DNA of 64,000 bases from an uncultured delta proteobacterium. GTDB taxonomy: Bacteria > Desulfobacterota > Syntrophia > Syntrophales > Fen-1087. Position 1 is the first letter of the stretch. The number at the start of each line of letters is the position of its first letter. Positions 5,071 through 51,862 of the stretch are shown piece by piece. Position numbers and translations under genes: made by a program. The stretch spans positions 341,247 to 405,246 of the forward strand of contig CAVPSX010000012.1 of NCBI GenBank assembly GCA_963708515.1, given 5' to 3'. The notes under the pieces were generated by a model, which did not search any database, had not been told where the DNA came from, and saw only the letters and a list, made by a program, of their open reading frames with translations.

Positions 5071-5541
5071 CGAGAACGACAGGGCTGCAATCTGACAGGA
5101 TAAAATGAATCCTTTCAATTATTTGGACAATTTTATATCATATTTTACTTGACGTACCTGTTATTATGGGTTAGACAAGATAAATTGTCACCATGTCAAC
5201 ACAGACGGAGTAATTCATGAGCATGTGGCTTGGGAAATAATATAGCGACTTTGCCATGACATTGTTTGGAGGATAGAGAAGGACCGTTTTAAAAAATTTG
5301 ATATTTGTGTTGAATACGTCGGCTTTTCATTTTACCTGTGCTTTTCTCATTTACGCTCGTCTTATTCCTTGCCTGACCCTTTTTTCCTTTTCCCCCGGTA
5401 AGAATTATCTTCAGAAAGTCCGGGAAAGACTGTTCAACGCGAAAATAGACGATTGATAATTGTTATTATATATTTACAAAGCTTTACAGGCCAGGATTCT
5501 TAAGATTTGTGATGAATCCATGGCAATGGGAGGTAAAAGAA

Positions 5542-6201
5542 ATGCCACTTGTCATAAAATGGGAACAGGATACGTCAAAGATAATGCGATCGGCCGTCCT
5601 GTGGTTGACCCTTTTTGTCGTATTGCTGTTCATCGGAAGTCCAATGATCATTTCCGCCAAGCATCGACTGCAGGATTTGACGTCGGCATCCGACTTTCTG
5701 AAACAGCATGAAAACTACTGGCAGAAGAAACGTATTTTAAAGGTCCTCGGTCAAGCCGATCTGACACAAGGGCATGCGAAGACCATTGCCCGGGCCGTCA
5801 TTGAGGAATCCGGGAAGCACGACATCCCGGTTTCACTGTTTCTGGCGATCATGAAAAAGGAAAGTAATTTTAAGGTCCACGCCCGGTCACCGGTCAACGC
5901 CATGGGGATCATGCAGATCCACCCCGTCACATGGGACGCCTACACTAAGAAACTAAATCTCGACGTCTCAAGGAAGCATGCCTTTGAGCCTGCCCTAAAC
6001 ATCATGGTTTCTGCAGCCCTTATAAGCGACCTCAGGGATCGGTACACGAAAATGGGGCTCGAGGAAACGATTCTCTGGGATTACATTCTGGCGGCCTATT
6101 ATGCGGGTGGCGAATCACTCAAAAGTGGCCTTAAGAAGAACCACAAATACTATGTGAAAAAGGTCAGGGAATATGATGATCAGATCAGCAGCACCATTTA
6201 A
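5542..6201 (+). CDS. Lytic transglycosylase (SLT domain), membrane-anchored or secreted
   Basis: SLT catalytic motif KKESNF...AMGIMQI, followed by AAYYAG. There is an N-terminal hydrophobic segment (AVLWLTLFVVLLFIGS). GGGAGG lies 8 nt upstream of ATG 5542. Confidence 0.8.
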   Translation: MPLVIKWEQDTSKIMRSAVLWLTLFVVLLFIGSPMIISAKHRLQDLTSASDFLKQHENYWQKKRILKVLGQADLTQGHAKTIARAVIEESGKHDIPVSLFLAIMKKESNFKVHARSPVNAMGIMQIHPVTWDAYTKKLNLDVSRKHAFEPALNIMVSAALISDLRDRYTKMGLEETILWDYILAAYYAGGESLKSGLKKNHKYYVKKVREYDDQISSTI

Positions 6202-6396
6202 TGCCCGATTTCGGGCAACGGAATCATCCTTCCAAGGATATTCTTCCGACTTAGCCGGCCTACCACAGCTTTTTTCTTTTTTATTTATCTGAAATACGTT
6301 AGCATCTCTTCCACGGCATGATCTGATCCGTGATTCCATGAAAGTCCATCCACGATACGAAAAACCGAGTAGATCATCTTCCAAGGGAGGTCGTTT

Positions 6397-7770: not shown

Positions 7771-10700
7771 AAGATCAATCCAAGACAAAGCAGGCGCTGG
7801 TCCAGGAACTGGCTTCTCTGAGACGGAGAGTCGCAGACCTTGAAAAAATGGAAGCTGACAAAGATGTCATCATACACAGGGACGCCGAAAAAGCGCTCAG
7901 TGAAAGCGAAGAGCTGTACCGCACGCTGGTTGAAACATCACCCGATGCGATCCTCATGTATGCCCTGGACGGAACGATTCTTACGGTCAACAACCAGCTT
8001 GTCGTACGATATGGCGCAGCCAGCGCTGCCGAGTTTCATGCCGAGGTCAAGACCGTCTTCGATCTTCTCGACGAGCTTGACCAGACAACCACGTCAGCCA
8101 ATTTTCGGCGGACGATGATACAGGGGGGATCGCGAAAAATCGAGTATCGGGTGCGCCTGCGCGATGGACAATCTATCTCCGTGGAAACTAATTCATCCGT
8201 TGTAAGGACAGCGGACGGCAAGCCGAGGGCGTTCATCAGCGTGGTCAGGGACATTACCGACCGTAAACAGATGGAGAAAATTCTCCATGACAACAAGGAA
8301 AGGTACCGAAATATCTTCGAGAATGCCAACGAAGCCATATTTGTTGCACAGGACGGAAGGCTGGTCTTTCTCAACCCGATGACCGCCATGATGAGCGGCT
8401 ATTCCGCTGAGGATCTCATGTCAAAGCCATTTATTGAATTCATTCATCCCAACGACCGGGATATGGTGATCGACAGGCATATTAGAAGAATGAAAGGTGA
8501 AAAGATTTCTCACCGTTATGCTTTTCGGATTATTAATAGAGATGGTGACTCCAAGTGGATGGAACTCAATGCCGTCCTGATAAACTGGGAGGGGAGAGCA
8601 GCCACTCTGAATTTTATGAGCGACATCACCGACCGCAAGCGGATGGAGGAAGCGCTACGGGAGGGTGAGGAACGCTTCCGTTCGTTGATCCAGAGTTTAT
8701 CGGATATGATATTCATCATCGACCTCAGCGGCCAAATCACCTATGAGTCTCCTTCCGTGTCGCGGATTCTGGGCTACGAACCCGGCTATTTTATCAGCAA
8801 GTCACCATTTATTCATATTCATCCCGATGACCTTGATCAGGTTGCGAAAGAACTCGACGAGGTCTTTCGATCAGTCAATCCAGGCCTGCCGACGGCGTTA
8901 AGATATCAAAAAGCGGATAACACATGGATTTATCTGGAAGCCCTCGGAAGCAACCATTATGATAACCCGGGCATTCATGGTGTTGTGATCACGGCACGGG
9001 ACATCACCGAGCGTAAATGGGCAGACGCGGCCCTCAGAAAATCAGAGGCTGAGAAAACGGTCATTCTCGAGAGCGTCTCGGATATGATCTTATATATCGA
9101 TAGAGACATGCGGGTCATTTATTCCAACCTCGCCATGGAAAAGTTCTTCAATTTGCATACCGGTTGTTTAGTGGGCAAAGCCTGCCATCATGCCCTCCAT
9201 CATCTCGATACCCCCTGTTCCATCTGCCCTGCTATCATAGCGATGGAAACAGGAAAACCTCATGGGGTTTTCACATCGTCCCTCGGAAGACACTGGCGCT
9301 TGAATGCTTATCCCGTCAGAGACGAAAGCGGTACGATCGTTGGCGCCATCGAGGCCGTCTCAGATATCACGGACTTGCGGAATGCGGAAGAAAAATACCG
9401 GTCGATCTTTAATAATGCCATGGAAGGGATTTACCAGTCGACCTGCGATGGTCGCCTTATCAGCGTCAATCCCGCTCTGGCCAAGATATTTGGTTATGAG
9501 TCCCCCGAAATCATGATGAGCGAAGTGACAAATGTCATGCAGAGTCTCTACGCTGATCCGGAAAAACGGCAAGAGTTCATGCGACTGGTTGAACAGCATG
9601 AAATCGTGAGAAACTTCGAATTTGAGGGATTGAAAAAAGATTCAGAGCGTATTTATGTTTCCGACACCGCCCGTGCGGTCAAGGACAGCAAAGGGAATAC
9701 GATATACTATGAAGGCATTATTCAAGACATCACAGAGCGCAAGCGTTCAGTGGAGGCGCTGCAGCTCAGCGAGGAGCGCTTTCGGGCTTTAAGTGAGAAC
9801 GCACCGGATATTATCTATACCATGAATCCTGATGGAGCCATCTCTTATGTGAATCCGTCGTGGAAAAGGATTTTGGGGCATGATAAAGAAGAAATACGGG
9901 GTTTTTACTTCACCGATTTTGCCAGAGAGGAGGACAGGAGGACCTACCGGAAGCTGTTCAAAAGCATTCGGGACGAGGGAAAGATCGTCAGTAATTACAT
10001 CGGGATTATGATGACCAAGGACGGCGCGGAAAAGGTGTTCAATATGAACAGTGCCTTCAATCGGGATGCGGAAGGTCGTATCATCAGTGTTGTAGGCACC
10101 ATGACGGACGTCACGGACCAAAAAGAAATTGAGAAAAAGCTCCAGCAGGCACAGAAGTTGGAGGCGATCGGGACGCTGGCCGGGGGTATCGCACATGATT
10201 TCAACAATCTGCTGATGGGGATCCAGGGTTATGCCTCACTGACATTGCTGGATCTCGAGCCATCTCATCCCCATTATACGCGCCTGAAGCAGATCGAGCA
10301 GCAGGTGCAAAGCGGCGCCGATCTGACGAAGCAGCTTTTGGGATTTGCCCGGGGCGGGAGATATGAAGCCAAGCCCACGGATATGAATGAGATTGTCGAC
10401 CGGACGGCTGCCATGTTCGGCCGGACGAAGAAGGAAATTGCCCTTCAGCGGAGTCTGGATAAGGATCTCTGGACGGTAGATGTCGATCAGGGGCAGATGG
10501 AACAAGTATTCATGAATCTTTATGTGAATGCCTGGCAGGCCATGCCCGGAGGCGGTGTGCTTTATCTTCAGACGATCAATTTCCTGCTGGAGGGTGACCG
10601 ATTGATGTCCCATACGATCATGCCGGGAAGATATGTGAAGGTATCGATCACCGATACGGGTTCAGGGATGGACGAGAAGACCCGGGAGCGGATATTCGAT

Positions 10701-11273
10701 CCTTTTTTCACGACCAAGGCCATGGGACGGGGGACGGGATTGGGTCTGGCGATGGTTTACGGGATCATCAAGGGACACGGGGGCATGATTGACGTGACCA
10801 GTGAGCCCGGCCAGGGGACGACTTTTGATATCTATCTGCCGGCAATGGATAAGCCAATCGATAAGGGGAAGTCAGTTGCCGTTGAAATTTTGACGGGGAC
10901 GGAGACGGTGCTCCTCGTGGATGACGAGCAGATGGTTCTGGAGGTTACGAAGGAACTACTGGAATCCCTGGGATATCGGGTTCACGCGGCCGGCAGCGGT
11001 CAGGAGGCGATCGCCGTTTATCTGGAAAAGCGAAAGGAGATCGATTTGGTCATTCTGGACATGACCATGCCGGGTCTATCGGGTGGGGAAACTTTTGACC
11101 GCCTGCGGGAGATCGATCCGGAGATCCGAGTTCTTCTGTCCAGCGGCTACAGCATCGACGGTCAAGCACAGCAAATCCTGGAACGGGGCTGCAACGGCTT
11201 CCTCCAGAAACCCTTTCAACTGGGAAGACTATCACAAAAGGTACGGGACGTTCTCAGCGAGGAAGGGCCTTAA
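7767..11273 (+). CDS. Hybrid sensor histidine kinase (about six PAS domains, HisKA, HATPase and a C-terminal receiver)
   Basis: PAS starts of the form E(E)RYR..FEN/..SPD recur six times. The H-box is [11 protein letters not shown], with G-boxes DTGSGM and GTGLGL. The receiver reads VLLVDDE...[14 protein letters not shown]...LLSSGY. The start overlaps the rmuC stop (ATGA). Confidence 0.9.
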
Positions 11274-13237
11274 TACTCGTCGATCGTCCATTGTTCATAA
11301 GGGCGGTCTTTCGCTCTGATGGCGGCCGGGCTGAGCTCCTGGATAAAGCGCGACGGGCTTATGGGCAGGTTGCCCATGCCACGGCTGTAATCAAAAACGG
11401 GATAGCACAGGTAGAGCTGATCTTTTGCCCGCGTGGCGGCTACGTAAAACAAACGCCTTTCCTCCGCTTCTCCGTCCGGCTCCTTCAGCGCACGCTGGAG
11501 CGGCAGCATGCCTTCGGCGCACCAGATGATAAAGACAGCAGACCATTCCAGGCCCTTGGCCTGATGGATCGTGCTGAGCACCACCCGGTTGTCTGTCCTG
11601 GAATCCATTCCCGCATCACCCTCTTCGGCCATATTGGTCAGCAGGGCCAGCTGGTTGATGAATTCTTCCAGCGAACCGAACCTGTCCGCAAACAGGATGA
11701 ATTGCTCCAGGTCCTCCAAGCGTGACGCGCTGTCCGTGAAGCGTTGCTGCAGCAGGTCCCGGTAGCCGCCCTCCAGGATTTTGTCGATCATCCCGGCGGG
11801 ATCGTTTTCCGGGGAGGCGGACTCCAGAATTCGCCGGAAGGTGTTTTGACCGCTCTGAAGGCCGGGCTGGGCCGATTTATGGGCTGCTTTGGGAAACGCC
11901 TCCGTCAGGACCGCCGCAAGCGGCTCCTCCTGCCTGCGGATGAACAGCCACACCTTTTCCGCCGTGACCTTTCCCACTTTTGGATAAAGACCGAGGACGC
12001 GCTTCCATGCCAGTTCGTCAAAGGGATTCAAGACGATGCGCATGAAGGAGGTCACATCCTTGATATGGGCCTGTTCGAAGAAACGGATGCCGGAGCGGAT
12101 CTCGAAGGGAATTCCACGCCGCGTCATTTCCATCTGGAGTTCCATGGAATGATAGTGCGCCCGGTAGAGCACCGCCGTGTCGTGCAGGTCGATACCGTCA
12201 CGCATCAGTTCGAGGATCCGCTGGCAGACAAAATCGGCCTGCTGCAGAACATTGCGCGCCGGCGCCAGCACCGGACGGATGCCCCGGCCCCGCACCGCTT
12301 TCAACTCTTTCTGATACTGATTTTCGTTGTTGATGATGCTCAGATTGGCCAGGTTCAGGATTTCCGGCGTGCTGCGGTAGTTGGTTTCAAGCTTGAAAAT
12401 CCTACATTCCGGATACTTCTCCGGAAATTTCATGATGTTGGCAAAATGGGCGCCCCGGAATGAATAGATGCTCTGGGAATCATCTCCCACCACCATGAGG
12501 TTCCGATGCACCGACGCCAGCAGGTCCACCATATCCGCCTGGATGAGGTTTGTGTCCTGATATTCATCGACCAGGATATGCTCAAAGCGCCCGGCGTAGG
12601 TCTGTAAAACGACCGGATATTCCGCCAGCAGTTTCCGGCAGTTCAGTAGAAGGTCGTCAAAATCCATGATATTCAGGGCCTTTTTGCGCCGATGATACGC
12701 TGAAATCACAGACTGGATCCCCTCCATCTGATGGAAGAAAAAGGGATAGCGGCAGAAAACGACTTGTTCAAAAGATGACTCTGTGTTCGCAGCCAAACTG
12801 GCGATCTCCCGTAAAATATCCCCTCTGGGAAATTTGTCTCCGAGTGGATCGATCGCCGCCTCAGAGATACAAGCATTGATGAGCTGCCGGGCGTCTTCCG
12901 AATCCATGATGGTAAAATTGCGTGCGTAACCCAGAAGATGACTGTTCGCCCTCAGAATCCGGTGGGCGATATGATGAAATGTCCCCCCCCAGAGTCTTTC
13001 CGTTTCCTGCGCAAGAAGCTGGTTGACCCGGGATAGCATCGAGCGTGAAGCCTTGTTGGTAAAGGTCGCCAGCAGGATTCTCTCTGGCCTGACGCCGGAT
13101 TCGATCAGGCGGGCCACCCGGAAGGTGAGGGTCCGCGTCTTGCCGCTGCCGGCGCCTGCGATCACAAGCAGCGGCCCTCCCGCTTCCATGACGACCAGGC
13201 GCTGTTGTTCGTTGAGCTCTTTGGCGTAGTCGATCAT
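11270..13237 (-). CDS. UvrD/Rep/PcrA-family ATP-dependent DNA helicase
   Basis: Walker A motif AGAGSGKTRTLT, plus the SF1 motifs ILVDEYQDTN, VGDDSQSIYSFRGA, NYRS, TIHQAKGLEW and YVAATRAK. Confidence 0.88.
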   Translation of the reverse strand: MIDYAKELNEQQRLVVMEAGGPLLVIAGAGSGKTRTLTFRVARLIESGVRPERILLATFTNKASRSMLSRVNQLLAQETERLWGGTFHHIAHRILRANSHLLGYARNFTIMDSEDARQLINACISEAAIDPLGDKFPRGDILREIASLAANTESSFEQVVFCRYPFFFHQMEGIQSVISAYHRRKKALNIMDFDDLLLNCRKLLAEYPVVLQTYAGRFEHILVDEYQDTNLIQADMVDLLASVHRNLMVVGDDSQSIYSFRGAHFANIMKFPEKYPECRIFKLETNYRSTPEILNLANLSIINNENQYQKELKAVRGRGIRPVLAPARNVLQQADFVCQRILELMRDGIDLHDTAVLYRAHYHSMELQMEMTRRGIPFEIRSGIRFFEQAHIKDVTSFMRIVLNPFDELAWKRVLGLYPKVGKVTAEKVWLFIRRQEEPLAAVLTEAFPKAAHKSAQPGLQSGQNTFRRILESASPENDPAGMIDKILEGGYRDLLQQRFTDSASRLEDLEQFILFADRFGSLEEFINQLALLTNMAEEGDAGMDSRTDNRVVLSTIHQAKGLEWSAVFIIWCAEGMLPLQRALKEPDGEAEERRLFYVAATRAKDQLYLCYPVFDYSRGMGNLPISPSRFIQELSPAAIRAKDRPYEQWTIDEY

Positions 13238-36103: not shown

Positions 36104-38545
<2,442 letters not shown>

Positions 38546-40060: not shown

Positions 40061-42271
40061 ATGAATTCCAGCAACAACTCCCGGTGGTTGATCATAGCCG
40101 CCGTGGCATCCTTCTTCATAATCATCATCATAACCGCTTTTTCGTTCCGGGATCAATGGCCATTGGATCAAAGGGTTTTTGTGGTCGGCATTCTGGGCAT
40201 CGCAGTCGGTTTGCTGGCCGCTCTGGGTTTGGCCATGCACGTCATGATTCATCGCTACATCCGCCCTCTGAGGAAAATTGCCGAGGAAACCAACCTGATC
40301 ACATCGGTCAATCCGTCACACCGCATTGACATTAAAGGCGGAAAGGAAGTCCTGCGTCTCGCTCAAGTCATTAATGAAAAAGCGGACCGCTTCGAGGAAC
40401 TGCAAAAAGATGTATGGCGTAAGATTGAGCTTGCCACGGCGCAGTCCGAGGAGGAAAAGAATATCCTTGCGGCCATCGTGTCGGAACTACCGGAAGGGAT
40501 ATTGATCTGTAACGCGGAAGGCCAGATCCTTTTATACAACAAACAAGCCAGGCGCTATCTTGAAGGCGACGAGCAGAGAACTTTTCCCGACCTTGATTCA
40601 AACCACTCTGCAACCGGCGCCGGGAATCCCTTCATCGGCCTGGGACGATCCGTGTTTGGTGTGATTGACAAGAACCTCATTGTCCCTGCCCTTGACGAGA
40701 TAGCGGGCAAACTGGAACGCAGGGAAGTACAGGCAACGGCTCATTTTATCACGCCGGGGGCCCAAACCAGTCTGCTGCGTACGGAAGCGGTCCCGATCCT
40801 GAGCCATATCGGGCATCTCACAGGATTTGTCCTGATATTCCAGGATATTATAAAACAGATCGAAACTGGCAGCCATTGGAGTTTTCTGCTGCAATCTCTG
40901 GCAAAGGGCATCCGTCCTTCCCTGGCAAATATCAGGACAGCCATTGAAGCCGTCCTCGAACACCCGGATATGGACCCTTCACAACTGGATGGCTTCAAAA
41001 ATATCATACACAAAGAATCCTTAAAATCAGGCGCCACCCTGGATGAGATGGTTTTTGATTATTCCGGCCATACCGGCGCCGGACGGCCTCTTGTGCGGAT
41101 GCTCGGCAAGGATCTGCTGGAGACGATAAAAAGAAGGGCTGAAGACCGTTTCGGCATTGCTGTGAAAATTGTCTACTCTGCCGACCCCAACTGGATTAAA
41201 GTTGATGCTTATTCCATCGTCCTGGCCATTCTCTTTGTACTGAACCGGCTGCGGCGCGAGACCAAAGCCGATGAATTTACCTGCAAACTGGAAAGAGAGG
41301 GGAAATTCGCAAACCTTGATCTGATTTGGCAGGGGAAACCATTAAAAATCCAGACCCTGCGTGAATGGGAGACAGAGGCGGTCATGGTCGAAAAAGAGGG
41401 TATCCCGTCAACCCTCAGAGAGGTTATTGCGCATCACGGCGCAAAGATGTGGCCGGCGATTCTGAGGCAAACCGCCGGTAATAACCGTCCGGGAATATGG
41501 CCCCGCTCTTATGAGATGTCGCAGGATAAGTCCGGACTTCGTTTGTTTTTCCCGGATGTTGAAATGCCCGAACCGGATACGCTCCGAAAGATCATGGTCG
41601 TACCGGAAAGCCGGCCGGCGTTCTATGATTTTGACCTTTTCAGCCAAGCCGGCCAGACGCCTGAACTGGACAACCGCCCGTTAACGGAGCTGACTTGCAC
41701 CGTCTTCGATACGGAAGCTACGGGATTATTTCCACAAGTGGGAGATGAAATCATCTCCATCGGCGCCGTGCGCATCGTCAACGGCCGCTTGCTGCGCGAA
41801 GAGCAATTCGATCAACTGGTCAATCCGCAACGGGGTTACTGGCAACAATCCATACCCATCCATGGCATTCAGCCCGAAATGCTTGAAGATCAGCCTGCCA
41901 TCGACAAGGTGCTCCCCCTGTTCCACCGATTTGCCGAAGATAGCATTCTCGTCGCCCATAATGCGGCCTTCGATATGAACCTGCTCCGGATGAAAGAGGC
42001 CGTCTCCGGCGTGAAATTCATCAATCCCGTACTGGACACCCTGCTGCTTTCGGCGGTGGTTCATCCCGCCCAGAACCATCACACGCTGGAGGCGATTGCC
42101 GAGCGCCTTGGCGTCAGTATCGTGGGCAGACATACCGCGCTGGGAGATGCGCTGGCAACCGGAGAGATATTCCTGAAGCTGATTCCGCTGTTGGCACAAA
42201 TGGGCATACACACCCTGGGAGCGGCCCGACTGGCTTCTCAAAAGACCTACTATGCCCGTTTCAAGTATTGA
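40061..42271 (+). CDS. Membrane sensor (TM-HAMP-PAS-like, degenerate histidine-kinase-like core) fused to a DEDDh 3'-5' exonuclease (DnaQ/epsilon-like) domain
   Basis: Two N-terminal hydrophobic helices and a HAMP-like linker (IRPLRKIAEETNLI...). The HisKA-like helix SLAKGIRPSLANIRTAIEAVL has K where the phosphoacceptor H is expected. The exonuclease motifs are FDTEATG, HNAAFD and HTALGDALATGE. Confidence 0.75.
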   Translation: MNSSNNSRWLIIAAVASFFIIIIITAFSFRDQWPLDQRVFVVGILGIAVGLLAALGLAMHVMIHRYIRPLRKIAEETNLITSVNPSHRIDIKGGKEVLRLAQVINEKADRFEELQKDVWRKIELATAQSEEEKNILAAIVSELPEGILICNAEGQILLYNKQARRYLEGDEQRTFPDLDSNHSATGAGNPFIGLGRSVFGVIDKNLIVPALDEIAGKLERREVQATAHFITPGAQTSLLRTEAVPILSHIGHLTGFVLIFQDIIKQIETGSHWSFLLQSLAKGIRPSLANIRTAIEAVLEHPDMDPSQLDGFKNIIHKESLKSGATLDEMVFDYSGHTGAGRPLVRMLGKDLLETIKRRAEDRFGIAVKIVYSADPNWIKVDAYSIVLAILFVLNRLRRETKADEFTCKLEREGKFANLDLIWQGKPLKIQTLREWETEAVMVEKEGIPSTLREVIAHHGAKMWPAILRQTAGNNRPGIWPRSYEMSQDKSGLRLFFPDVEMPEPDTLRKIMVVPESRPAFYDFDLFSQAGQTPELDNRPLTELTCTVFDTEATGLFPQVGDEIISIGAVRIVNGRLLREEQFDQLVNPQRGYWQQSIPIHGIQPEMLEDQPAIDKVLPLFHRFAEDSILVAHNAAFDMNLLRMKEAVSGVKFINPVLDTLLLSAVVHPAQNHHTLEAIAERLGVSIVGRHTALGDALATGEIFLKLIPLLAQMGIHTLGAARLASQKTYYARFKY

Positions 42272-42331
42272 TTAAAATGGTATCGCTATGGCACTCAAAG
42301 CCGCATATCTAAAACAGCAAGGAGACTGATC

Positions 42332-44224
42332 ATGGGCCATGAAGCCTATCCATTTCTACAAAATCTGCCTCCGTTTTCTTTTCTGCCCGATGCGGAAGTT
42401 GAAAAGATCGTCGCGGACCTCGTCGCCGTGAACCATCCAAAGGACGTCTTTTTGCTCATTCAGGGCCGATCAAAAGTCGAACACCTCCATATTATAAAAA
42501 AGGGGGCTGTCGAACGGTATTACAGGGAGAGAAACGAGGAATTGATGCGCGCGCGGTTGCGGGAAAGAGACTTCTTCGGGGGTATCTCCATGCTTTTGCA
42601 CGACGGCATCTCCGTGTGTATGTTCAGAACGACCGAAGATTCCGAATTGTATTTGCTCCCCAAACAGAGGTTTCTCGATCTCTGTTCACGCTATCCGGTC
42701 TTTTCCGATTTTTTTACAGACATGCTGGGCAAGTGGATGCTCGATAAATCCTATGCAATGCCCATCGCCAAAACCATGCATCCGAAAGAAGAATTGCCGC
42801 AAATCTTCAACCAGAGCGTCGAAAACATATTTTCGAGAAAACTGGTTTCTTGCGATACCCATACGTCCATTCAGGAAGCCGCAGCCATGATGGGCAACAA
42901 CCGATGCAGCTCCATCCTTGTCAAGGAACCCCATGGCGATTTTACGGGCATCATGACCGACCGGGATTTGAGAAATAAAGTAATCATCCAGGCGACCTGC
43001 GACATGACCAGGACGGTTTCCCAAATCATGTCCTCCCCCTTGAGCACCGTCCCGGCCGCGGCCCCGGTCTCGGATGCGCTCATGATCATGATGATGAAAG
43101 ATATCAAACACCTTGCGGTCACGGACGCCGATGAAAAGGTGATTGGAATTGTCACCAACAAGGACATCCTCGGGGCCCATGGACAGTCGCCTTTTTTCCT
43201 GCTGCGGGAGATTCATGCAGCGGTGAGCCTTGAGGAGATAACGGACAAGCAGAGCCGGTTGCCCGGACTGATTCAGAGCCTCATCAGCAGCGGCGCCAAG
43301 GCCATGAATGTGGCCCGCATGGTATCCGTCATTTCAGATGCCATCCTGAACAGACTCATCGGCTTTGCAATCGCTGAGTTGGGCCCGCCGCCGGTCCGGT
43401 TTGCATTTATGATCGTGGGCAGCGAGGGCAGGCGGGAGCAGACGCTCAAGACAGACCAGGACAATGCCATCGTTTATGAAGATCCCCCGGGGGAAACGGA
43501 AGAGGCCGTCAGAGGCTACTTTCTGGCATTCGGAGAAAAGGTCTGCAACTGGCTGGATCAGGTGGGATATACCTTCTGCAACGGGGGCGTCATGGCAAAA
43601 AACCCCCAATGGTGCCAGCCCCTGTCCGTCTGGAAAAAATATTTTTCCACCTGGATCGGAACCGCGGAACCGGTGGCCCTGATGCAGTCGAGCATCTTCT
43701 TCGATTTCCGCTGCGGCTATGGCGATTTGGCCATCATCGACGAACTGCGCCAACATCTTTTTCATTCCCTTGGCGAGCATCCCAACTTTTTCCGATATCT
43801 GGCGGAAACCACTCTTGAACGCAAACCGCCGCTGGGCCTTTTCCGGACTTTTATCGTCGAATCGAAGGGCGAGCACCGCGATACCCTCGATGTGAAGAGC
43901 CCCATGATCACGATTGTCAACTATACCCGTCTCTATGCTCTCAGGAACGGCATTGAGGAAACGAATACCCAGGAAAGGATGTACCAGCTCTTCCTCAAGA
44001 AACGCCTCTCCTGGGAGGATTATCATGACTTCGAGCAGGCCTACAGTTTTCTCATGCAGCTGAGACTGGCCCGGCAGCTGACCGCACTGATCAGGGAAAA
44101 CGCGAAGCCTGATAATTATATCAATCCGAACAAGCTCTCACGCCTGGAGCAGACCATGCTCAAGGAAATCTTTAAGCGGATTGAAAAGTATCAGGAAAAG
44201 ATGGTCTTTGACTTCTGGAAATGA
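42332..44224 (+). CDS. cNMP-binding, tandem-CBS, DUF294 putative nucleotidyltransferase with a DUF294_C substrate-binding domain
   Basis: N-terminal cyclic-nucleotide-binding fold (FFGGISML), two CBS motifs, the NTase motif IVGSEGRREQTLKTDQDNAIV, and a helical C-terminal domain. Confidence 0.85.
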   Translation: MGHEAYPFLQNLPPFSFLPDAEVEKIVADLVAVNHPKDVFLLIQGRSKVEHLHIIKKGAVERYYRERNEELMRARLRERDFFGGISMLLHDGISVCMFRTTEDSELYLLPKQRFLDLCSRYPVFSDFFTDMLGKWMLDKSYAMPIAKTMHPKEELPQIFNQSVENIFSRKLVSCDTHTSIQEAAAMMGNNRCSSILVKEPHGDFTGIMTDRDLRNKVIIQATCDMTRTVSQIMSSPLSTVPAAAPVSDALMIMMMKDIKHLAVTDADEKVIGIVTNKDILGAHGQSPFFLLREIHAAVSLEEITDKQSRLPGLIQSLISSGAKAMNVARMVSVISDAILNRLIGFAIAELGPPPVRFAFMIVGSEGRREQTLKTDQDNAIVYEDPPGETEEAVRGYFLAFGEKVCNWLDQVGYTFCNGGVMAKNPQWCQPLSVWKKYFSTWIGTAEPVALMQSSIFFDFRCGYGDLAIIDELRQHLFHSLGEHPNFFRYLAETTLERKPPLGLFRTFIVESKGEHRDTLDVKSPMITIVNYTRLYALRNGIEETNTQERMYQLFLKKRLSWEDYHDFEQAYSFLMQLRLARQLTALIRENAKPDNYINPNKLSRLEQTMLKEIFKRIEKYQEKMVFDFWK

Positions 44225-44788
44225 TCAGTAACCGACGAGATAGATAAAACTTAAAATAAAGACGAAGGAGACCGCGACACAGGCCACGGCCCTTTTCATG
44301 GGAAAACCGGTGAGCAGGTGGAGCACCTTGGTCATCAGATACAGAAAATAGATGAAGGCGGAAAGCATGATCAGGACTGTGAGCGGGCTACCTGAAATCG
44401 ACCCTCCCGCCTGCCGTAAAAAGGTTAAATGCGTGTTGGCCGCCAGCAGCACGCCGTATGGAAGAAACGCATAGCCCACGGCAATAAAAACATCGATGAA
44501 ACGCGAGGGGGCTCCTCCGAGCACTTTGCCGATGCCCCACAGGAGCAGCGTAATGCCCAGCTGGGAAGCGATCACGGCCATATAGCCAAAAACAACATAA
44601 AAAGCGGCTTCTGCGGTATTAATCTGATCGGCGCCGACGACACTCCTGTAATAGAACATCGTCAGTCCGTGGATCTGTGCGACCGTAAAGACAATCAGCG
44701 GGGAAAGCAGCAGGCTCCTTTTATCGCGGATGCTGGCGGCGACTTTCCCATCCACGGCAGCGATGTCCCACAGCCAGTTCAATAACAT
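44225..44788 (-). CDS. Yip1-like polytopic membrane protein
   Basis: Five predicted TM segments with a Yip1-type layout. The start is trimmed to MLLNWLWDI, which has a GGAAGGGGAG RBS. The stop codon abuts the stop of the convergent DUF294 gene. Confidence 0.55.
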   Translation of the reverse strand: MLLNWLWDIAAVDGKVAASIRDKRSLLLSPLIVFTVAQIHGLTMFYYRSVVGADQINTAEAAFYVVFGYMAVIASQLGITLLLWGIGKVLGGAPSRFIDVFIAVGYAFLPYGVLLAANTHLTFLRQAGGSISGSPLTVLIMLSAFIYFLYLMTKVLHLLTGFPMKRAVACVAVSFVFILSFIYLVGY

Positions 44789-44822
44789 GTTCTCCCCTTC
44801 CCTTGTTCTCAATACTTATTTG

Positions 44823-44899: not shown

Positions 44900-46568
44900 T
44901 TATAGCACAGCGAAGATGCAGAAAGCAAGCATAATCAGGCCGATGATGGCCGGGCCCACATCGCTGGCATAACGCGTGCTGTCCTTTCTGATCGCGTGGT
45001 CAGGCCAGCCGTGCATGAACTCCACCATTTTATCCGTCTTCTCGCGCGGAATCTTGGCGGCCAAAGCCGGAATCCGGTTGGTGATCATGGAAACGAAGAT
45101 CATCACGACAAAGGAAATCGGCACCGAAAAGACGCCCGGGAACGGCGTCGGCCCGTAGGGTGCAGCGCTTAGAACCGGACTCCAGGTGAAGGACGGGTGG
45201 GCGAATTTCGCATTGAAGAACAGAGCGAAAAACCCTCCGACCAGCATGCCGGCGATGACGCCGTACTTGTTCCCTCCCTTCCACCATATCCCCATGATCA
45301 GCGGGGCCGTAAAGACCGAAGCGGAAAGAATGATGGCCCAGATGACGCTGGCCAGTGCGAACGTGGGCGGGTTGATGGTCATGAACATGATGACCACGCC
45401 CGAGATGAAGATCGTGATGGGGCCCAGGATCTTCTTCTGCTTTTCCGTGAGTTCCCTGATGCCGCCGATAATGTCGTGGGCGATGCCCGTGCCGATGACC
45501 ATCAATGCCCCGGCGATCGTGGACATGCCCGCGGCGATGGCGCCGGCCAGGATCAGGGCCAGGGCCCAGTTGCCGACGAAGGCATCAGACAGGATGAAGA
45601 GCAGCTTGTCCGCCTGCACGGCCTTGATCGCCAGGCCCTTCGTCTGCGTGTAGATGACGCCCGCAAAACCGGCCGTGAAGGTCAGCACGTTGACGCAACC
45701 GATCATGAGTATGCCCAGCAGGAAGCCCATGCGGCCTTCGCGGGTGTTTTTCGCCGAAGAAATGCGGGACAGGTAATGGGGCACCGACATCGTGCCGAAC
45801 AATCATGGAGAACAGCACACCGATGTACCATTTGGGGCTCGCGTCATACAGGATCGAGAAGAACTTGGGGAACGCCTTGAGCATTTCAGGCGTCATGTTG
45901 CCGTATCCCCACATCGGCAGCCACCATAAGCTCGCGCCCAGGGCCTTGGCGATGGCCATGACCGGAAACAAAAGGAAGGCCACGCACATGAATCCCTGGA
46001 AGGCCTGGTTCCAGGTCACGCCGTACATTCCGCCGAACGTCACATAGAGGACGACGATGATGCCGCCGAGGAACAGGGCGGGTACGTAGGAGATGCCGAA
46101 GAGCAGCTCAAAGATGTGGGCAATGCCCTTCATCTGGCTGACGGAATACATGATCATGATGAAGATCATGAAGACGACCGCCACCAGACGGCCCGCGTTA
46201 GTCTGGAAACGCGTGAAAATGTATCCGGCCGCCGTATAGGTCCCGAGGCGGCGGATGGGGCCGGAAAAAAGGAAGATCATGATGCCGAAGCCGATCATCC
46301 AGGCCTGGGACATGATGGCAAGCAATGACTGGATGCCCCAGATAAAGGCCGTAAATCCGATGAACGTGGCCAGGCTCAGGTAGGCCGACACGATGGCAAA
46401 GGCGTTGACGACGGGTCCGACGGACGCGCCGGCCATGTAATAGTCGCCGCTGCTCTTCGTGGCGCGCTGCGCCATGACGCCCACAATGATAAACAAGACG
46501 ATGGACCCTAAAACGCTGATGAGGCCCGGTATGTACAACCCTTCTCTTTGGAAGAATTCCATGGTCAC
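44900..46568 (-). pseudogene. Sodium:solute symporter (SSS) large subunit, one frameshift near 45801
   Basis: Two ORFs (46568-45585 and 45802-44900) together give a roughly 555-aa SSS protein. The sense reading ...IGVLFSMI | FGTMSVPHYLSRISSAKNTREGRMGFLLG is restored by removing one base. Confidence 0.85.
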
Positions 46569-46849
46569 ACCTCCTTCTGCGCGTTGGCCTTAGCGTCATC
46601 GATTTTGGTCAAGACGCGGACAACGAAGTAGATGAAAGCGATGACACCAATATAGGCGATGAAGTTCTGATAAAAGAATGGAAACGGGAACCCCCAGACG
46701 TAGACGTCCAACAGGCCCGGGAAGGGAAGCATGAACAATACGCCCATGGCGGAACACATGCAGATCACCGTACTGACAGAGACAACGAAAAGCTCTTTTT
46801 TATAAATGCGATCATTGGCTTCCGTTGCACTACTTTTTTGTTGTGCCAT
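46565..46849 (-). CDS. DUF4212 small membrane protein (putative solute:sodium symporter small subunit)
   Basis: 94 aa with two TM helices and the WGFPFPFFYQNFIAYIGVIAFIYF motif. Its stop overlaps the SSS start (ATGA). Confidence 0.8.
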   Translation of the reverse strand: MAQQKSSATEANDRIYKKELFVVSVSTVICMCSAMGVLFMLPFPGLLDVYVWGFPFPFFYQNFIAYIGVIAFIYFVVRVLTKIDDAKANAQKEV

Positions 46850-47636: not shown

Positions 47637-49772
47637 TCATCCCACAGGGCCGTTCACTTTGTTGAGCTCACGGATGAATTTATAACGTGAAATGTTAAGC
47701 AATTTTGCAGCCTTGGACTTGTTTCTGCCAGCCACATTGAGGGCATTTTCAAGAATGGCTTTGTTTATCTCCCGAGTCATGCTGCCGGTCACGCCTTCAT
47801 AATCCATACCTTCAGGCGTCACGGCAGGCGCCCATTGCATGATGGGTATCTTCGCTTCTTCCTGATCGATGGCTGCTTTCATTTCCACGGGGAGGTTTTC
47901 CGCTGTGATCATCTTACCGGACTGTTTGAGAATCATGACCCGCTCAATGATGTTCTTCAATTCCCTGACATTGCCCGGCCAGGTGTAGTTCTTCAGGCTC
48001 AACTCCGCATCCCGGCTGAACCCACGAATACTTTTCTTGAATTTCTTGTTGAATTCATCCACGTAATACTGAGCCAGCAGCATGATGTCCTCCGTCCTGT
48101 CCCTCAGCGGCGGAATCACGATGGGCACCACACTGACACGATAAAAAAGATCTTCCCGGAATGTTCCTTCAGCGACCATCCGGACAAGATCCTGATTGCT
48201 GGAAAAAATAAACCGCACATCGACGGGAATATTCTCCGTCCCGCCCAATCTGCGGATATAACCGTCTTCAAGCATTCTTAGAAACTTGGCCTGCAGGTGA
48301 ATATTCATATCCCCGACTTCGTCCAGCAGCAGCGTTCCCCCGCTGGCATACTCCAGCAGTCCGATTTTTCTCTTGCGTGCATCGGTAAAAGCGCCGGCTT
48401 CATATCCGAACAGCTCACTCTCAAGCAGCGTTCCCGGAATCGCGGCACAGTTCACATCAACGAAGTGTTTTGCGCGGCGGTCGCTATGACGGTGAATCGC
48501 CCGCGCAATGAGTTCCTTCCCTGTTCCGCTCTCCCCCTGAACCAGAACGTTCGTGTTGTGGTTGGCAACATTTTCGATCAAGCGGAAGATATCCGTCATT
48601 TTATCAGATTGACCAAGGATGTCATGGAATCCCAGCAGCATGTCCTCCCGCTGCTTGAGTGCCTCCACTTCGGTCTTGAGGTTTTTCGCCTCCAGGGAAA
48701 GCAGGGAATGCATAATCGCATTATCATAGGCCGTTGCGGCATTTCTTACAAGAACATCAAGAATATTGATTTGATCGGAGAGATAAGCCCCCGTCTTTTT
48801 CGCCAGATACAGGGCGCCCTTGAACTTGTCTTTGATCTGTAGGGGAATGGCGATCTCCGATGGAAAATCCGGAAACAACGGCAACAGGACAGAGGGATCC
48901 GACGAGGCGTTTCTGATGACATGGGTATTTTCATCAATGGCCCGGGCAATAATGCTCTGGCGGACGCGCTGATCACCCTCGGATTTGTCGCCGATCACGA
49001 CCTTTTCTCCGTCATAAATAAAACAACGGTTCCTGGTCATGTCCAGAAAATAGACAAAGGCCCCGTCCGCAGCAGAGATTTCCATGGCGCTTCGCGAGAG
49101 GAGCTTCAGGATGCGATTGTCGAGTACATAGCTCGAGTTCATATCGGAAACGGCCTGCTGCAGAATCAGCAGCATGCGAATCTTCTCGGCATTGGCCTCC
49201 AAAAGTCTGGCATTATGAATCATGATGCTGATCTGCCCGGCAAAGGCCTGAAAAAGGCTGATCTGCTCCGGATAGAATTTGGTTTCATTCTGCCACCAGG
49301 CGCCCAGAATCCCGATGACATCCTCTCCTGCTTTAAGCGGTGCAACGAAGATGGACCCATGATTGTAGATATTCGTCAGCATGCGGTCGGTATCCGTGAT
49401 GCGCGGATCTGTCGCCGCGTCCTCGATCGTGATCGGCTCACCGGATTTTACGACCTTGACGGCCAGGCCGTCATGCAGCGTCAGGTCCAAAGGCACCGCA
49501 AAGGCCCTCTGGGCTTCTTCGGGCGTGTAATTTTTTACAACCTTTGCAACCAGATACCGCTTGCTTTCATCGATGAGGCGGATGATGCCCCGGTGAAATC
49601 CGATCGCATCCACCACCTCGTCGAGAATATTTTTCAAAAACTCATTGACGCTCGCATGCCTGTTCATGAAGACGCTGATCCGGAAAATGCTCTCCAGCAA
49701 CTTGTCCTTGTCAAGAAGCGGGCGAGATGCAGCAAGCTCCACAGGTCTGTAGATATTTAACTCGGCATTCAT
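47637..49772 (-). CDS. Sigma-54-dependent transcriptional activator (GAF-GAF-AAA+-Fis HTH)
   Basis: Two N-terminal GAF-like domains. The AAA+ core has VLVQGESGTGKELIARAIH, the GAFTDA-type loop (ESELFGYEAGAFTDA) and a VRELKN-type motif (GNVRELKNIIER). The C-terminal HTH reads NKSKAAKLLNISRYKFIR. Confidence 0.9.
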   Translation of the reverse strand: MNAELNIYRPVELAASRPLLDKDKLLESIFRISVFMNRHASVNEFLKNILDEVVDAIGFHRGIIRLIDESKRYLVAKVVKNYTPEEAQRAFAVPLDLTLHDGLAVKVVKSGEPITIEDAATDPRITDTDRMLTNIYNHGSIFVAPLKAGEDVIGILGAWWQNETKFYPEQISLFQAFAGQISIMIHNARLLEANAEKIRMLLILQQAVSDMNSSYVLDNRILKLLSRSAMEISAADGAFVYFLDMTRNRCFIYDGEKVVIGDKSEGDQRVRQSIIARAIDENTHVIRNASSDPSVLLPLFPDFPSEIAIPLQIKDKFKGALYLAKKTGAYLSDQINILDVLVRNAATAYDNAIMHSLLSLEAKNLKTEVEALKQREDMLLGFHDILGQSDKMTDIFRLIENVANHNTNVLVQGESGTGKELIARAIHRHSDRRAKHFVDVNCAAIPGTLLESELFGYEAGAFTDARKRKIGLLEYASGGTLLLDEVGDMNIHLQAKFLRMLEDGYIRRLGGTENIPVDVRFIFSSNQDLVRMVAEGTFREDLFYRVSVVPIVIPPLRDRTEDIMLLAQYYVDEFNKKFKKSIRGFSRDAELSLKNYTWPGNVRELKNIIERVMILKQSGKMITAENLPVEMKAAIDQEEAKIPIMQWAPAVTPEGMDYEGVTGSMTREINKAILENALNVAGRNKSKAAKLLNISRYKFIRELNKVNGPVG

Positions 49773-49827: not shown

Positions 49828-51862
49828 TCAAATTTTATCAAACCTTAAAAATTGCATGGAAAAAACCGCCCTGCCTTGGGTTGCAGAGCGCAGATCGGTG
49901 GAATATCCAAATAACGCTTTCAAGGGGACCCTGGCCTTGATTTCACTGATGCTTCCCTTGGGGCTGACGGCTTGAATTTCTCCTCGTCTGGCGTGGATGT
50001 CGCCGATTACATCACCCATGAATTCGCCGGGCGTCAAAATATCCACATTCATAATCGGCTCTAGTGTTGCACGGATCAGCCTGCGCGCAAGCATCCTTGA
50101 ATGCAGAACTGGCGGCAACCTTATAGCCCAGGACCGTCGCCTCCCCTTCCCGGAAGGAGCCGCCCACAAGACTGACACGCACATCGACAACAGGGTACCC
50201 GGCCAGGCAACCACTGAGGGCTGATTCACGAACCCCCTCTTCAATGGCGCCGTAATATTCTTCGGGGATGACGGTCCCGTCAATCCGGCGGACGAATTGA
50301 AGACCGCTGCCCCTGCTTAAAGGCTCCAGTGCCAGGCGAACATGGCCGAAGTGTTTTCTTTCTCCCAGCTCCTTTTCAAAACGACCGTCAATTTCAGCTT
50401 TCTTCTGAATGGTCTCGCGATAGACCACGCGGGGCTGACCGATATTGACCCGCGTATTGAATTCGCGGATCAACCGGTCAATGATAATCTCCAGATGAAG
50501 TTCACCCATCCCCGATATCACGGTCTGGGCCGTCTCATCATCATATTTAACCAGGAGGGTCGGGTCCTCTTCCATAAACTTGGACAGCGCCAGGGACAAT
50601 TTCTCCTGATCTGCAGGGGTCTTGGCTTCGATGGCCTGGCTGATAACCGGCTCGTAAATATCAATCGGCTCAAGAAGAATGGGATGGTCTTCATCACATA
50701 TCGTATCGCCGGTGGTGGTTTCCTTGAGACCCATCACGGCAATGATCTCGCCGGCAACTGCCTTTTCGATCCGTTCCCGCTTGTTGGCATGCATTTTCAG
50801 AAGCCGCGCAATCTTTTCCTTTTTCTGTTTACTCGCATTGTATATTTCCTGGCCTGCCTGCATTTCCCCGGCATAAATCCTCAGGTAAGTGAGCTTGCGG
50901 CCTTCGTCCTGCATAATCTTGAAAGCCAGTGCTGTCAAAGGCTCCGTATGATTGCTCAGGCGGGTTTCTTCCGCATGCGTGACAGGATTAACACCCCTGA
51001 TCGAAGGGATATCCTCCGGAGAGGGAAGGTAGGCAACCACGGCATCCAAGATGGGCTGCACTCCCTTGTTTCGCAGGGCCGAACCGCACATAACGGGAAC
51101 TACTTTCAGGGACAGCGTTGCTTTCCGGATTGCACTTACGATGTCCCCGGCAGAAATGTCTCTCCCTTCTAAGTATTGATCGGCAAAGTTGTCATCAATT
51201 TCTGCCAAAGTTTCGATCATCTGCTCCCGGGATTGCCTGACCTGGGGAAGAAGATCAGCGGGTATGTCGGAATAACTGAATGACAATCCGAGTGTCGTAT
51301 GATCCCAGGTTACGAGCTGCCGATGGATCAGATCAACAACGCCTCTGAAGGTTTCCTCCTGGCCCCAGGGAATCTGGATCGGAAGGGGCCGGGAATTGAA
51401 TCGCTTTTGCATCATGCTGACTGTCGCGAAATAATCGGCGCCGACTCTATCCATTTTGTTTATGAAGGCAATTTTAGGGACGCCATATCTGTCTGCCTGG
51501 TGCCAGACCTTTTCAGACTGCGGTTCCACACCGCCCACGGCACAGAAAACCACCACGGCGCCATCCAAAACCCTCAGAGACCGTTCGACCTCAATCGTAA
51601 AGTCGACATGCCCTGGCGTATCGATGACATGAATCTCGTGATTTTTCCAGGAACAGGTCGTCACGGCAGAGGTAATGGTAATCCCTCTCTCCTGTTCCTG
51701 CGGCATCCAGTCCATGACGGCTTCGCCGTCATGGACCTCACCCATCTTGTAGGACCGGCCCGTATAAAAAAGGATGCGTTCGCTCACCGTGGTTTTACCG
51801 GCATCGATATGCGCAACAATCCCGATATTTCGTGTTCTTGAAAGTTTGGATTTTGAAGCCAT
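49828..51862 (-). pseudogene. Elongation factor G paralog (outside the str operon), one frameshift near 50071
   Basis: The G domain has [17 protein letters not shown] and NKMD. Domains II-IV are in the 616-aa ORF. Domain V and the C-terminus ([32 protein letters not shown]...) are in the overlapping 49828-50283 ORF. Confidence 0.85.

Follow-up and report, generated by a model that had tools for sequence, protein, structure and literature searches.

A histidine-kinase-derived pseudokinase fused to a DEDDh exonuclease and paired with a DUF294 nucleotidyltransferase in a Syntrophales-related bacterium

The two genes of the locus

We analysed a stretch of 64,000 nucleotides (the window in what follows) from an uncultured delta proteobacterium related to the Syntrophales (assembly GCA_963708515.1, contig CAVPSX010000012.1, positions 341,247 to 405,246 of the forward strand), and within it two adjacent plus-strand genes, ORF1 (40061-42271) and ORF2 (42332-44224). 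ORF1 encodes 736 amino acids, in which two transmembrane (TM) helices, a HAMP-like segment, a PAS-like domain and degenerate counterparts of the DHp and CA domains of histidine kinases are followed by a DEDDh exonuclease. ORF2 encodes 630 amino acids, with a cyclic-nucleotide-binding (CNB)-like domain and a pair of CBS domains ahead of a DUF294 nucleotidyltransferase (NTase) core and its DUF294_C domain. From the stop codon of ORF1 to the start of ORF2 there are 60 nt, and an AAGGAG ribosome-binding site lies ahead of ORF2. An initial annotation, made from the sequence and its translations, had described ORF1 as a pseudokinase-exonuclease fusion and ORF2 as a ligand-gated nucleotidyltransferase; its coordinates and gene contents agree with what we found.

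A kinase core without its catalytic residues

No Pfam match to HisKA or HATPase_c was obtained on ORF1 even at E <= 1, and residues 271-540 had no Pfam or NCBIfam match, so the kinase homology of the middle of the protein is visible only by profile-profile and fold comparison. When compared by Foldseek with structures in the PDB, the first 500 residues aligned with complete sensor kinases, best with WalK (E 2.5e-19 over 500 columns), and also with VicK, the YF1 LOV-kinase and HK853. A profile of residues 255-505 and 73 homologues was aligned by hhalign with genuine HisKA+HATPase_c sequences, taken from kinases that neighbour ORF1 relatives in other genomes, and gave a probability of 98.3% and an E-value of 1e-13.

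In this alignment the DHp-like helical hairpin (residues 263-335; 40847-41065, plus strand) places SLAKGIRPSL of ORF1 opposite the H-box TVTHELRTPL of the kinases, so that K282 (codon 40904-40906) occupies the phospho-acceptor position, exactly where the initial annotation had put a lysine. Across 67 sequences from several phyla this position holds Glu in 28, Lys in 10, Arg in nine and Gln in six, with other residues in the rest and His in none. Eighteen of the 67 relatives have a His four residues earlier, and the ORF1 of the window does not; R285, in the same hairpin, is invariant. The degenerate CA (GHKL-like) domain that follows (residues 345-499; 41093-41557, plus strand), recognised from the structure model, from hhalign and from the family columns, has R396 where the N-box Asn should be (Arg in 44 and Gln in 10 of the 67 sequences) and W423 in place of the Asp of the G1 box, DxGxG (66 of the 67 have Trp), and most of the G2 box (GxGxG) falls in an alignment gap. 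ORF1 is a membrane-anchored descendant of sensor histidine kinases (HAMP-PAS-DHp-CA) that has lost the phospho-acceptor His, the N-box Asn, the G1 Asp and the G2 box, and is not an ordinary kinase. The family has conserved residues of its own in this region (W436, H459 and W464), which argues that the pseudokinase domain is selected for something other than ATP-dependent phosphorylation. Since the ORF1 of the window keeps all the family-conserved pseudokinase residues, the module appears to be still under selection in this lineage.

The domains in front of the pseudokinase were assigned from weaker signals. Two TM helices are seen from hydrophobicity at residues 9-29 and 39-63 (40085-40249, plus strand), corresponding to helices 4-28 and 36-82 of an AlphaFold2 model (74 homologues, pLDDT 75, pTM 0.49), and the predicted topology has both termini inside. 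The periplasmic loop between them is only about nine residues long. This leaves no room for an extracytoplasmic sensor domain, so the external signal that the initial annotation had envisaged for the exonuclease is unlikely; the helices may instead contact a membrane partner. The helix-connector-helix of residues 64-141 (40250-40483, plus strand) is HAMP-like, as judged from a sub-threshold Pfam HAMP match (residues 63-106, E 0.038), from family invariants and from the WalK and VicK fold matches. Its connector, N84-P-S-H87-R88-I...G93 (40310-40339), is invariant family-wide. HAMP connectors are not usually so well conserved, and the segment is a possible functional site. Residues 142-262 (40484-40846, plus strand) form a PAS-like, cytoplasmic domain, for which we have a sub-threshold Pfam PAS_4 match (residues 136-171, E 5.6e-4), precomputed PAS-family Pfam entries on several homologues and the topology of the model. 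In the latter, a long helix-connector-helix leads into a PAS fold with five-strand topology (146-262) and a helical hairpin (263-335); after these come an alpha/beta domain (345-499), a linker with little order and the exonuclease (546-735).

The exonuclease domain

The DEDDh 3'-5' exonuclease occupies residues 546-736 (41696-42268, plus strand). RNase_T (PF00929) matches residues 548-704 with E 1.7e-33 and 116.9 bits, against a cut-off of 24; the sequence match in the PDB is 2p1j (E 6e-32), and the domain superposes by Foldseek on the structures of PolC, epsilon and DnaQ with a root-mean-square deviation of about 2-3 A. All five catalytic residues, D550, E552, D638, H691 and D696 (D-x-E of ExoI, D of ExoII and H-x4-D of ExoIII), are invariant in both the 74- and the 67-sequence alignments, so that the domain is complete, as had been annotated, and the nuclease is expected to be active.

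Just N-terminal of it lies a linker motif, S-R-P-x-[FY]-Y-D-F-D-L-F (residues 517-529; 41609-41647, plus strand), which is invariant in 67 of 67 diverse relatives. The motif decays in the variants, described below, in which DUF294 replaces the nuclease, and it therefore belongs with the nuclease. Its likeness to the beta-clamp-binding pentapeptide is loose, and reading it as a beta-clamp contact would be speculation only.

Relatives of ORF1 are called 'DNA polymerase III subunit epsilon' in public records, and the generic DEDDh model of PADLOC matches ORF1. One may therefore ask whether a more ordinary annotation would do, in which ORF1 is an epsilon-type exonuclease for proofreading or repair, or a working sensor kinase, or in which the pair serves anti-phage defence. 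A replisome subunit would hardly carry two TM helices, HAMP, PAS and pseudokinase segments in a transporter and two-component context, a working kinase is at odds with the family-wide replacement of its catalytic residues and the near loss of the G2 box, and for defence there is no match on ORF2 and a neighbourhood that is metabolic. We regard this annotation as extremely unlikely, and the public name is very probably wrong. Anti-phage defence was rejected as a candidate: the PADLOC matches (the generic DEDDh model and two PDC-S48 candidate models) fall on ORF1 over the exonuclease domain only, with none on ORF2.

The nucleotidyltransferase encoded by ORF2

The catalytic half of ORF2 comprises the DUF294 NTase core (residues 309-447) and the helical DUF294_C domain (residues 485-627), together at 43256-44212 on the plus strand. 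Both were recognised by Pfam above threshold (DUF294, PF03445, E 2e-49, 167.5 bits; DUF294_C, PF10335, E 1e-40, 139.4 bits). The motif G363-S364...D375-x-D377 (43418-43465) and a third carboxylate, D458, which together make up the signature of Pol-beta nucleotidyltransferases, are invariant in 60 homologues; the catalytic carboxylates whose absence would have undone the initial annotation's module are thus all present. No relative of DUF294 with a solved structure turned up when PDB sequences were searched. With an AlphaFold model (pLDDT 82) as the Foldseek query, the catalytic half matched both domains of GlnE (1v4a, 415 columns, E 9e-8; 3k7d) and the AMPylation domain of DrrA (6yx5_B, TMt 0.67), and none of the top 50 PDB matches was a CCA-adding enzyme, poly(A) polymerase (PAP), MenT, cGAS, DncV or other CD-NTase structure. 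This pattern of matches, with neither RNA-tailing nor cGAS-type structures among the top 50, suggests that the modelled fold points to protein nucleotidylation.

In front of the catalytic half, the CBS pair (residues 160-283; 42809-43180, plus strand) was recognised by Pfam above threshold (1e-20, in two stretches) and by Foldseek matches to CBS pairs (TMt 0.8-0.87). The CNB-like beta-barrel (residues 12-125; 42365-42706, plus strand) matches cNMP_binding (PF00027) over residues 36-121 (E 5e-11, 42.8 bits against a cut-off of 27.5) and, in Foldseek, the CNB domain of PKG (TMt 0.82-0.87). In alignments to SthK and Bd1971, which are pairwise only and have E-values of about 0.006, the Glu and Arg of the phosphate-binding cassette are absent from ORF2, which reads FFGG...GISV (G84; I93/S94) against FFGE...PRTA in SthK and FGE...NRSA in Bd1971. 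Hence, of the cyclic-nucleotide gating that had been proposed for ORF2, the domain itself stands by profile and fold, whereas gating by a cyclic nucleotide is doubtful and is not established. By its modelled fold, then, ORF2 carries, after its CNB-like domain and CBS pair, a nucleotidyltransferase that belongs structurally with GlnE and DrrA.

The fold also bears on the idea of a second-messenger pair, in which DUF294 would make a linear or cyclic oligonucleotide that the DEDDh enzyme degrades, as Orn and NrnC do with pGpG, thereby tuning transport. The Pol-beta NTase fold is shared with synthases of the cGAS/DncV type, some DEDDh enzymes degrade dinucleotides, and both enzymes of the locus carry sensor domains. 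Such synthases are nevertheless missing from the top Foldseek matches, PADLOC has no match on ORF2, and among recurrent neighbour genes no candidate receptor was recognised; we consider a second-messenger pair very unlikely.

Family spread and gene context

The full-length architecture of ORF1 is common, with 407 database clusters at E <= 1e-5 and, in a species-genome collection, at least 579 stretches encoding an ORF1 relative among the 600 matches listed. The best 80 of these matched loci, in which neighbours were typed within 8 kb of the exonuclease gene and to which the following counts refer, span five phyla by record title. They include Desulfobacterota, Rhodocyclales and Burkholderiales (Accumulibacter, Zoogloea, Thauera, Azoarcus), as well as Competibacter, Pseudomonas, Chloroflexota, a Spirochaetia metagenome-assembled genome (MAG) and a Thermoleophilia MAG.

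The strongest association in the family, and one that the initial annotation missed, is with a stand-alone receiver gene, which lies directly upstream of the exonuclease gene in 70 of the 80 loci, or in 67 of 75 if only those with enough DNA upstream are counted. Between the end of the receiver and the beginning of the exonuclease gene, the median extrapolated distance is 21 nt (10th to 90th percentile, -18 to +59 nt), many pairs overlapping by 4 nt, and the receiver carries the usual DD, D, T and K residues. An SSS-like sensor kinase of about 920 aa, with canonical HisKA and HATPase_c domains, was found in 50 loci, an SSS symporter in 45 and acs in 34. A DUF294 homologue was found in 46 loci, in 27 of them directly downstream on the same strand. 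The typical betaproteobacterial order (e.g. locus L035) is acs, SSS-like kinase, receiver, exonuclease, DUF294, SSS symporter, and in a Pseudomonas locus (L051) the order SSS-like kinase, receiver, exonuclease was verified by Pfam. In a reverse check starting from DUF294 in 80 metagenome loci, an exonuclease gene was nearby in 29 of the 46 with enough flank, and many of the DUF294 loci that lack it have a divergent SSS-like kinase.

DUF294 and the exonuclease thus co-occur well above chance, in keeping with the initial annotation's expectation of a conserved pair; DUF294 is a frequent, non-obligate partner of the exonuclease and the receiver a tighter one. SSS monocarboxylate symporters and acs form the centre of a conserved island of which both genes are part.

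A further recurrent neighbour is a spore-photoproduct-lyase-like radical SAM gene (PF20903; e.g. L022, 10184-11997), which follows the exonuclease or the DUF294 gene in 14 of the 80 loci, mostly in Desulfobacterales and Desulfosarcina MAGs, and is usually accompanied by a staphylococcal-nuclease-like gene (nine loci).

One sensor module, two enzymes

ORF1 residues 255-505 were scanned by HMMER against 1.84 billion representatives, and the best 150 module matches were domain-typed by local BLAST. The module is carried by 521 clusters (50% identity), most of which have the architecture of about 720 aa. Two kinds of variant were observed. In the first, soluble PAS-pseudokinase proteins of about 330 aa have no nuclease or output domain (P0342, P0346, P0357, P0377 and P0388) and have Glu at the position of the His. 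One of them, P0357, is encoded behind an SSS-like kinase and a receiver with a 4-nt overlap (L168, SRR8272534 contig, 1-3662); the contigs of P0346 and P0388 are too short for an informative context. In the second kind, DUF294 and DUF294_C stand in the place of the exonuclease: P0258 (L085, 2313-4748) and P0380 are HAMP-PAS-pseudokinase proteins fused to DUF294, without TM helices, CNB or CBS. The two are 52% identical and align without gaps across the same junction, where the exonuclease would begin, and this shared junction indicates a maintained architecture and not an assembly artefact.

Since the module occurs alone or fused to either enzyme, gene context suggests that the exonuclease and the nucleotidyltransferase are alternative (interchangeable) or paired outputs of one pathway, and that the conserved core of the family is the receiver with the pseudokinase.

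These observations have to be set against the possibility that the two enzymes are independent outputs or mere neighbours, i.e. that the exonuclease serves the pathway of SSS-like kinase and receiver and DUF294 acts on another target, with no shared substrate. DUF294 is missing from 34 of the 80 exonuclease loci and the exonuclease from 17 of the 46 DUF294 loci, the receiver is by far the tighter partner of the exonuclease, and mutants of the two genes differ in phenotype (PMC9927547). Co-occurrence of about 60% in both directions, covering several phyla from the exonuclease side, speaks on the other hand against independence, as do the 27 loci with same-strand adjacency, the close spacing in the window and the use of one sensor module to drive either enzyme. 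On balance we find independence rather unlikely.

The neighbourhood in the window and in close relatives

The closest relatives of ORF1 and ORF2 come from MAGs named Syntrophales or 'Deltaproteobacteria'. Two loci, L081 and L082, have about 90-95% nucleotide identity to the window, and in a Syntrophales MAG locus, L083, the ORF1 homologue is 68% identical. Receiver and kinase genes are absent next to ORF1 in the window and in all three of these loci, so that in this lineage the receiver partner, if any, would have to be encoded elsewhere. The order begins with an unrelated gene (a hydrolase gene in L083, ychF in the window and the other two loci), which is followed by the exonuclease gene, DUF294 and then a convergent operon. 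The latter has a small membrane gene, of Yip1-like type in the window and in L081, an SSS gene and a small ORF, and is duplicated in L083.

Upstream of ORF1 in the window, on the plus strand, lie prs, an L25 gene, pth, an H+-pyrophosphatase gene and ychF, the last of which ends 44 nt before ORF1. No terminator was found between ychF, ORF1 and ORF2, and sigma-70 and terminator scans did no better than on shuffled sequence. The gene for the membrane H+-pyrophosphatase (36104-38545) is the second gene ahead of ORF1 and shares its orientation, with synteny kept in L081; a link to pyrophosphate from nucleotidyl transfer or from Acs would be pure speculation.

Downstream, on the minus strand, a Yip1-like membrane protein gene (44225-44812) abuts the stop of ORF2; it is conserved in L081, and L083 has an unannotated 184-aa gene there. 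It is followed by the SSS-family symporter gene (44900-46568, minus strand), closest to the VC_2705 and ActP groups, which in the window is split by a 1-nt insertion near 45801 when compared with the intact 553-aa copy of L081. That copy matches TIGR03648 (VC_2705) best, with 212 bits against a cut-off of 320.75, and ActP with 147 bits, also below cut-off. Upstream of the SSS gene, and overlapping it by 4 nt, is a small membrane ORF of 94 aa (46565-46849, minus strand) with weak DUF4212/DUF997 resemblance; its match to PF13937 (DUF4212) is sub-threshold (E 0.007, 17 bits against a cut-off of 30). The DUF4212/SSS context proposed earlier therefore holds for the symporter gene, the small subunit being suggested by a sub-threshold match; judged by sequence, the two-subunit DUF4212/VC_2705 symporters are the closest family, of which the pair is not a certified member.

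Beyond this operon, a GAF-domain sigma-54 activator gene (47637-49772, minus strand), conserved in L081, possibly regulates the symporter operon and is mentioned as context only; a sigma-54 consensus scan gave fewer matches than expected by chance, with none upstream of the symporter operon. An EF-G paralogue also lies downstream, convergent to ORF1 and ORF2. It is split in the window (49828-51862, minus strand), with EFG_C in a separate ORF (49828-50283), and the paralogue (50012-51862, minus strand) recurs near the exonuclease gene in 11 of the 80 loci (L003, L014, L019, L022-L026, L030, L032 and L072). The prs gene is likewise shortened, by a single-base indel at about 33927 in comparison with L081. 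The single-base differences from L081 in the SSS gene, the EF-G paralogue and prs probably reflect errors of assembly or sequencing, though the genes may be true pseudogenes.

Farther away, and apparently unrelated to ORF1 and ORF2, the region 5509-13237 holds an RmuC gene (6397-7770) and a convergent UvrD-like helicase gene (11270-13237), with a hybrid histidine kinase of 1168 aa, with at least six PAS domains and a C-terminal receiver, at 7767-11273.

A possible mechanism

That the pair is part of a signalling module tied to monocarboxylate transport, with the pseudokinase as its scaffold, is in our view very probable. Because a receiver gene directly precedes the exonuclease gene in about 89% of relatives, usually behind an SSS-like kinase, the pseudokinase is most likely a receiver-docking device, and the likely path runs from the kinase to the phosphorylated receiver (REC~P) and on to the pseudokinase. 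The latter would dock and sense the receiver much as DivL reads DivK~P, and through it a transporter-like kinase would control exonuclease activity; that the pseudokinase reads REC~P in the family generally seems to us slightly better than an even guess.

For the two enzymes, one may suggest that ORF2, the writer, places an inhibitory nucleoside monophosphate (NMP) on one of the proteins for uptake or activation, in a step controlled by adenine nucleotides bound to the CBS pair and by a ligand of the CNB-like domain. The DEDDh domain, the eraser, would then hydrolyse the protein-NMP phosphodiester, release 5'-NMP and restore transporter function. Release of 5'-NMP from a 3'-O-P bond, as when a 3'-terminal nucleotide is removed, is chemically equivalent to its release from a Tyr-O-P bond. 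In Pseudomonas putida, deletion of pp_0353 (RNase_T) impairs growth on pyruvate as deletion of actP-I does, and deletion of pp_0354 (CBS/DUF294) does not (PMC9927547). Protein is suggested as the substrate because loss of the eraser is harmful while loss of the writer is silent, because the fold of ORF2 is of AMPylase type and because the two releases are chemically equivalent. We hold the explanation as a whole, a docking pseudokinase with a writer and an eraser acting on one such protein, as tentative, and our preferred one, at somewhat below even strength. The writer and eraser of a protein-NMP mark, taken as a claim of its own, lies between improbable and doubtful, and the fully specified three-component route, from SSS histidine kinase through receiver to pseudokinase, with a DEDDh protein de-nucleotidylase opposing DUF294 on the monocarboxylate machinery, we consider improbable.

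Several points weigh against this explanation. Docking of the receiver on the pseudokinase is read from synteny only, the receiver and kinase partners are absent beside ORF1, so that the proposed input cannot be demonstrated in the window, and the confidence of the ORF1 model is moderate. About 40% of the loci are without DUF294, which means that the exonuclease can function without an adjacent writer. The literature contains no biochemistry on either family. In P. putida the genes are of the short, non-fused form and in opposite order, and they are likened to ORF1 by Pfam family. The closest sequence relatives of the ORF1 exonuclease are the DNA proofreading domains of PolC and epsilon and, to our knowledge, all DEDDh enzymes so far characterised have nucleic acids or oligonucleotides as their substrates, and none a protein-NMP adduct.

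This last point makes an RNA 3'-end writer and eraser the main rival. DUF294 would then tail an mRNA, small RNA or tRNA, and the DEDDh enzyme would trim it as RNase T does, setting the stability or translation of symporter and acs transcripts. Besides the known specificity of DEDDh enzymes for nucleic-acid 3' ends, and best sequence and fold matches that are nucleic-acid exonucleases, RNA-tailing enzymes do exist in the Pol-beta NTase superfamily, precedents being poly(A) polymerase, the CCA-adding enzyme and the MenT-type NTases. For the P. putida genes, Henriquez et al. speculate that the exonuclease degrades mRNA (PMC9927547). The NTase of ORF2, however, matches the AMPylases GlnE and DrrA, with CCA, PAP and MenT structures missing from the top 50 matches; Pfam shows no recognisable RNA-binding domain in ORF1 or ORF2, and a membrane-anchored nuclease would be unusual for RNA processing. 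We consider the RNA reading doubtful.

Significance

In the long form represented by ORF1, a dead kinase scaffold appears to connect an exonuclease to two-component signalling. Should the fully specified three-component route, which we consider improbable, prove true, it would provide the first case of a DEDDh enzyme working on a protein-NMP bond, and COG2905/DUF294 would gain its first function. Accumulibacter, Competibacter, Zoogloea and Syntrophales-related bacteria are members of wastewater and anaerobic acetate-converting communities, and the presence of relatives in these groups means that the family bears on the control of acetate and pyruvate uptake there. The exonuclease partner is needed for normal pyruvate use in P. 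putida (PMC9927547). A hitherto uncharacterised pair becomes testable through REC~P binding, through writer/eraser epistasis and through NMP-modified proteins or tailed RNAs as candidates.

Comparison with known systems

Earlier papers already describe DUF294 and the exonuclease as an uncharacterised pair with a link to transporters of acetate and pyruvate. The pp_0354-pp_0353 operon of P. putida is bound by ErdR, and the study found no molecular function for either gene (PMC9927547); PA3232-PA3235 are co-induced on propionate (PMC9765439). Fitness data show DUF4212 small subunits cofit with SSS large subunits, and some of them also with a neighbouring 'COG2905 (RNase T domain protein)' (10.1101/072470). 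DUF294/COG2905 was predicted in 1999 to be a regulatory nucleotidyltransferase by Aravind and Koonin, as cited in PMC5715377, and the papers of the literature we searched assign it no biochemical function. The initial annotation's link to SSS and acs islands, and its remark that no biochemistry had been demonstrated, are in agreement with these reports (10.1101/072470, PMC9927547, PMC5715377, PMC9765439). In the searched literature there was no paper linking SLC5/STAC kinases, a stand-alone receiver and the exonuclease. What appears to be new is that the long form contains a genuine histidine-kinase-derived pseudokinase, that it is coupled almost universally to a stand-alone receiver and an SSS-like kinase, and that the same pseudokinase module also drives DUF294.

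The pairs PP_0354/PP_0353 (P. putida), PA3233/PA3232 (P. aeruginosa) and that of Pflu5625, from the MxtR/ErdR (i.e. CrbS/R) regulon, have the same two Pfam enzyme families side by side, lie beside or are co-regulated with ActP-type SSS symporters and acs (PMC9927547, PMC5715377, PMC9765439) and are under an SSS-domain histidine kinase system. The pair of the window has the same adjacency, DUF294 and RNase_T near an SSS symporter, here convergent and downstream. Unlike those pairs, it has a 540-residue TM-HAMP-PAS-pseudokinase extension on the exonuclease and the exonuclease gene first, its host is related to Syntrophales-like Desulfobacterota, and there is no CrbR-type regulator nearby: no CrbR-like gene was recognised among the annotated genes of the window, which has the GAF/sigma-54 activator near the pair instead.

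As to the enzymes themselves, the NTase core and helical substrate-binding domain of the ORF2 model superpose on those of GlnE and DrrA/SidM, with the G-S...D-x-D motif present, whereas sequence identity is 12-14% and the regulatory domains of ORF2 are CNB-like and CBS. GlnE reverses its mark with a second NTase domain, not with an exonuclease. The exonuclease of ORF1 is about 40% identical to the exonuclease domain of T. maritima PolC in the Foldseek alignment and shares its five catalytic residues and those of DnaQ (epsilon). In contrast to both, it is not in a polymerase and is membrane-tethered behind signalling domains, with the family-specific RPxFYDFDLF preceding the nuclease.

The membrane part recalls the intramembrane-sensing kinases of the BceS/LiaS type, which have, like ORF1, two TM helices with a minimal extracytoplasmic loop. 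By analogy, the resemblance suggests that ORF1 may sense through a partner membrane protein such as a transporter. Unlike BceS and LiaS, ORF1 is predicted to be without kinase activity, and a partner transporter, if there is one, would belong to the SSS and not to the ABC type.

For the pseudokinase, the nearest parallels are DivL and NifL, which likewise retain the DHp and CA scaffold, with kinase function gone and PAS domains upstream. The NifL-NifA complex, in which NifL is a histidine-kinase-like, non-phosphorylating sensor, is among the Foldseek matches of ORF1. DivL, which has Tyr in place of His and keeps an ATP-binding CA domain, shares with the ORF1 family a single-domain receiver as partner, to judge by the synteny of receiver and exonuclease genes. 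DivL is a repurposed kinase of Caulobacter that senses the phosphorylated receiver DivK~P (PMC4211667). In the ORF1 family, unlike in DivL, the residue in the His position is variable (E/K/R/Q), the N-box Asn and the G1 Asp are replaced, and the output is a fused DEDDh exonuclease (or DUF294), not the regulation of another kinase. In these terms the ORF1/ORF2 system is a case of two-component signalling in which a histidine-kinase scaffold has been put to new use and the output, unusually, is enzymatic.

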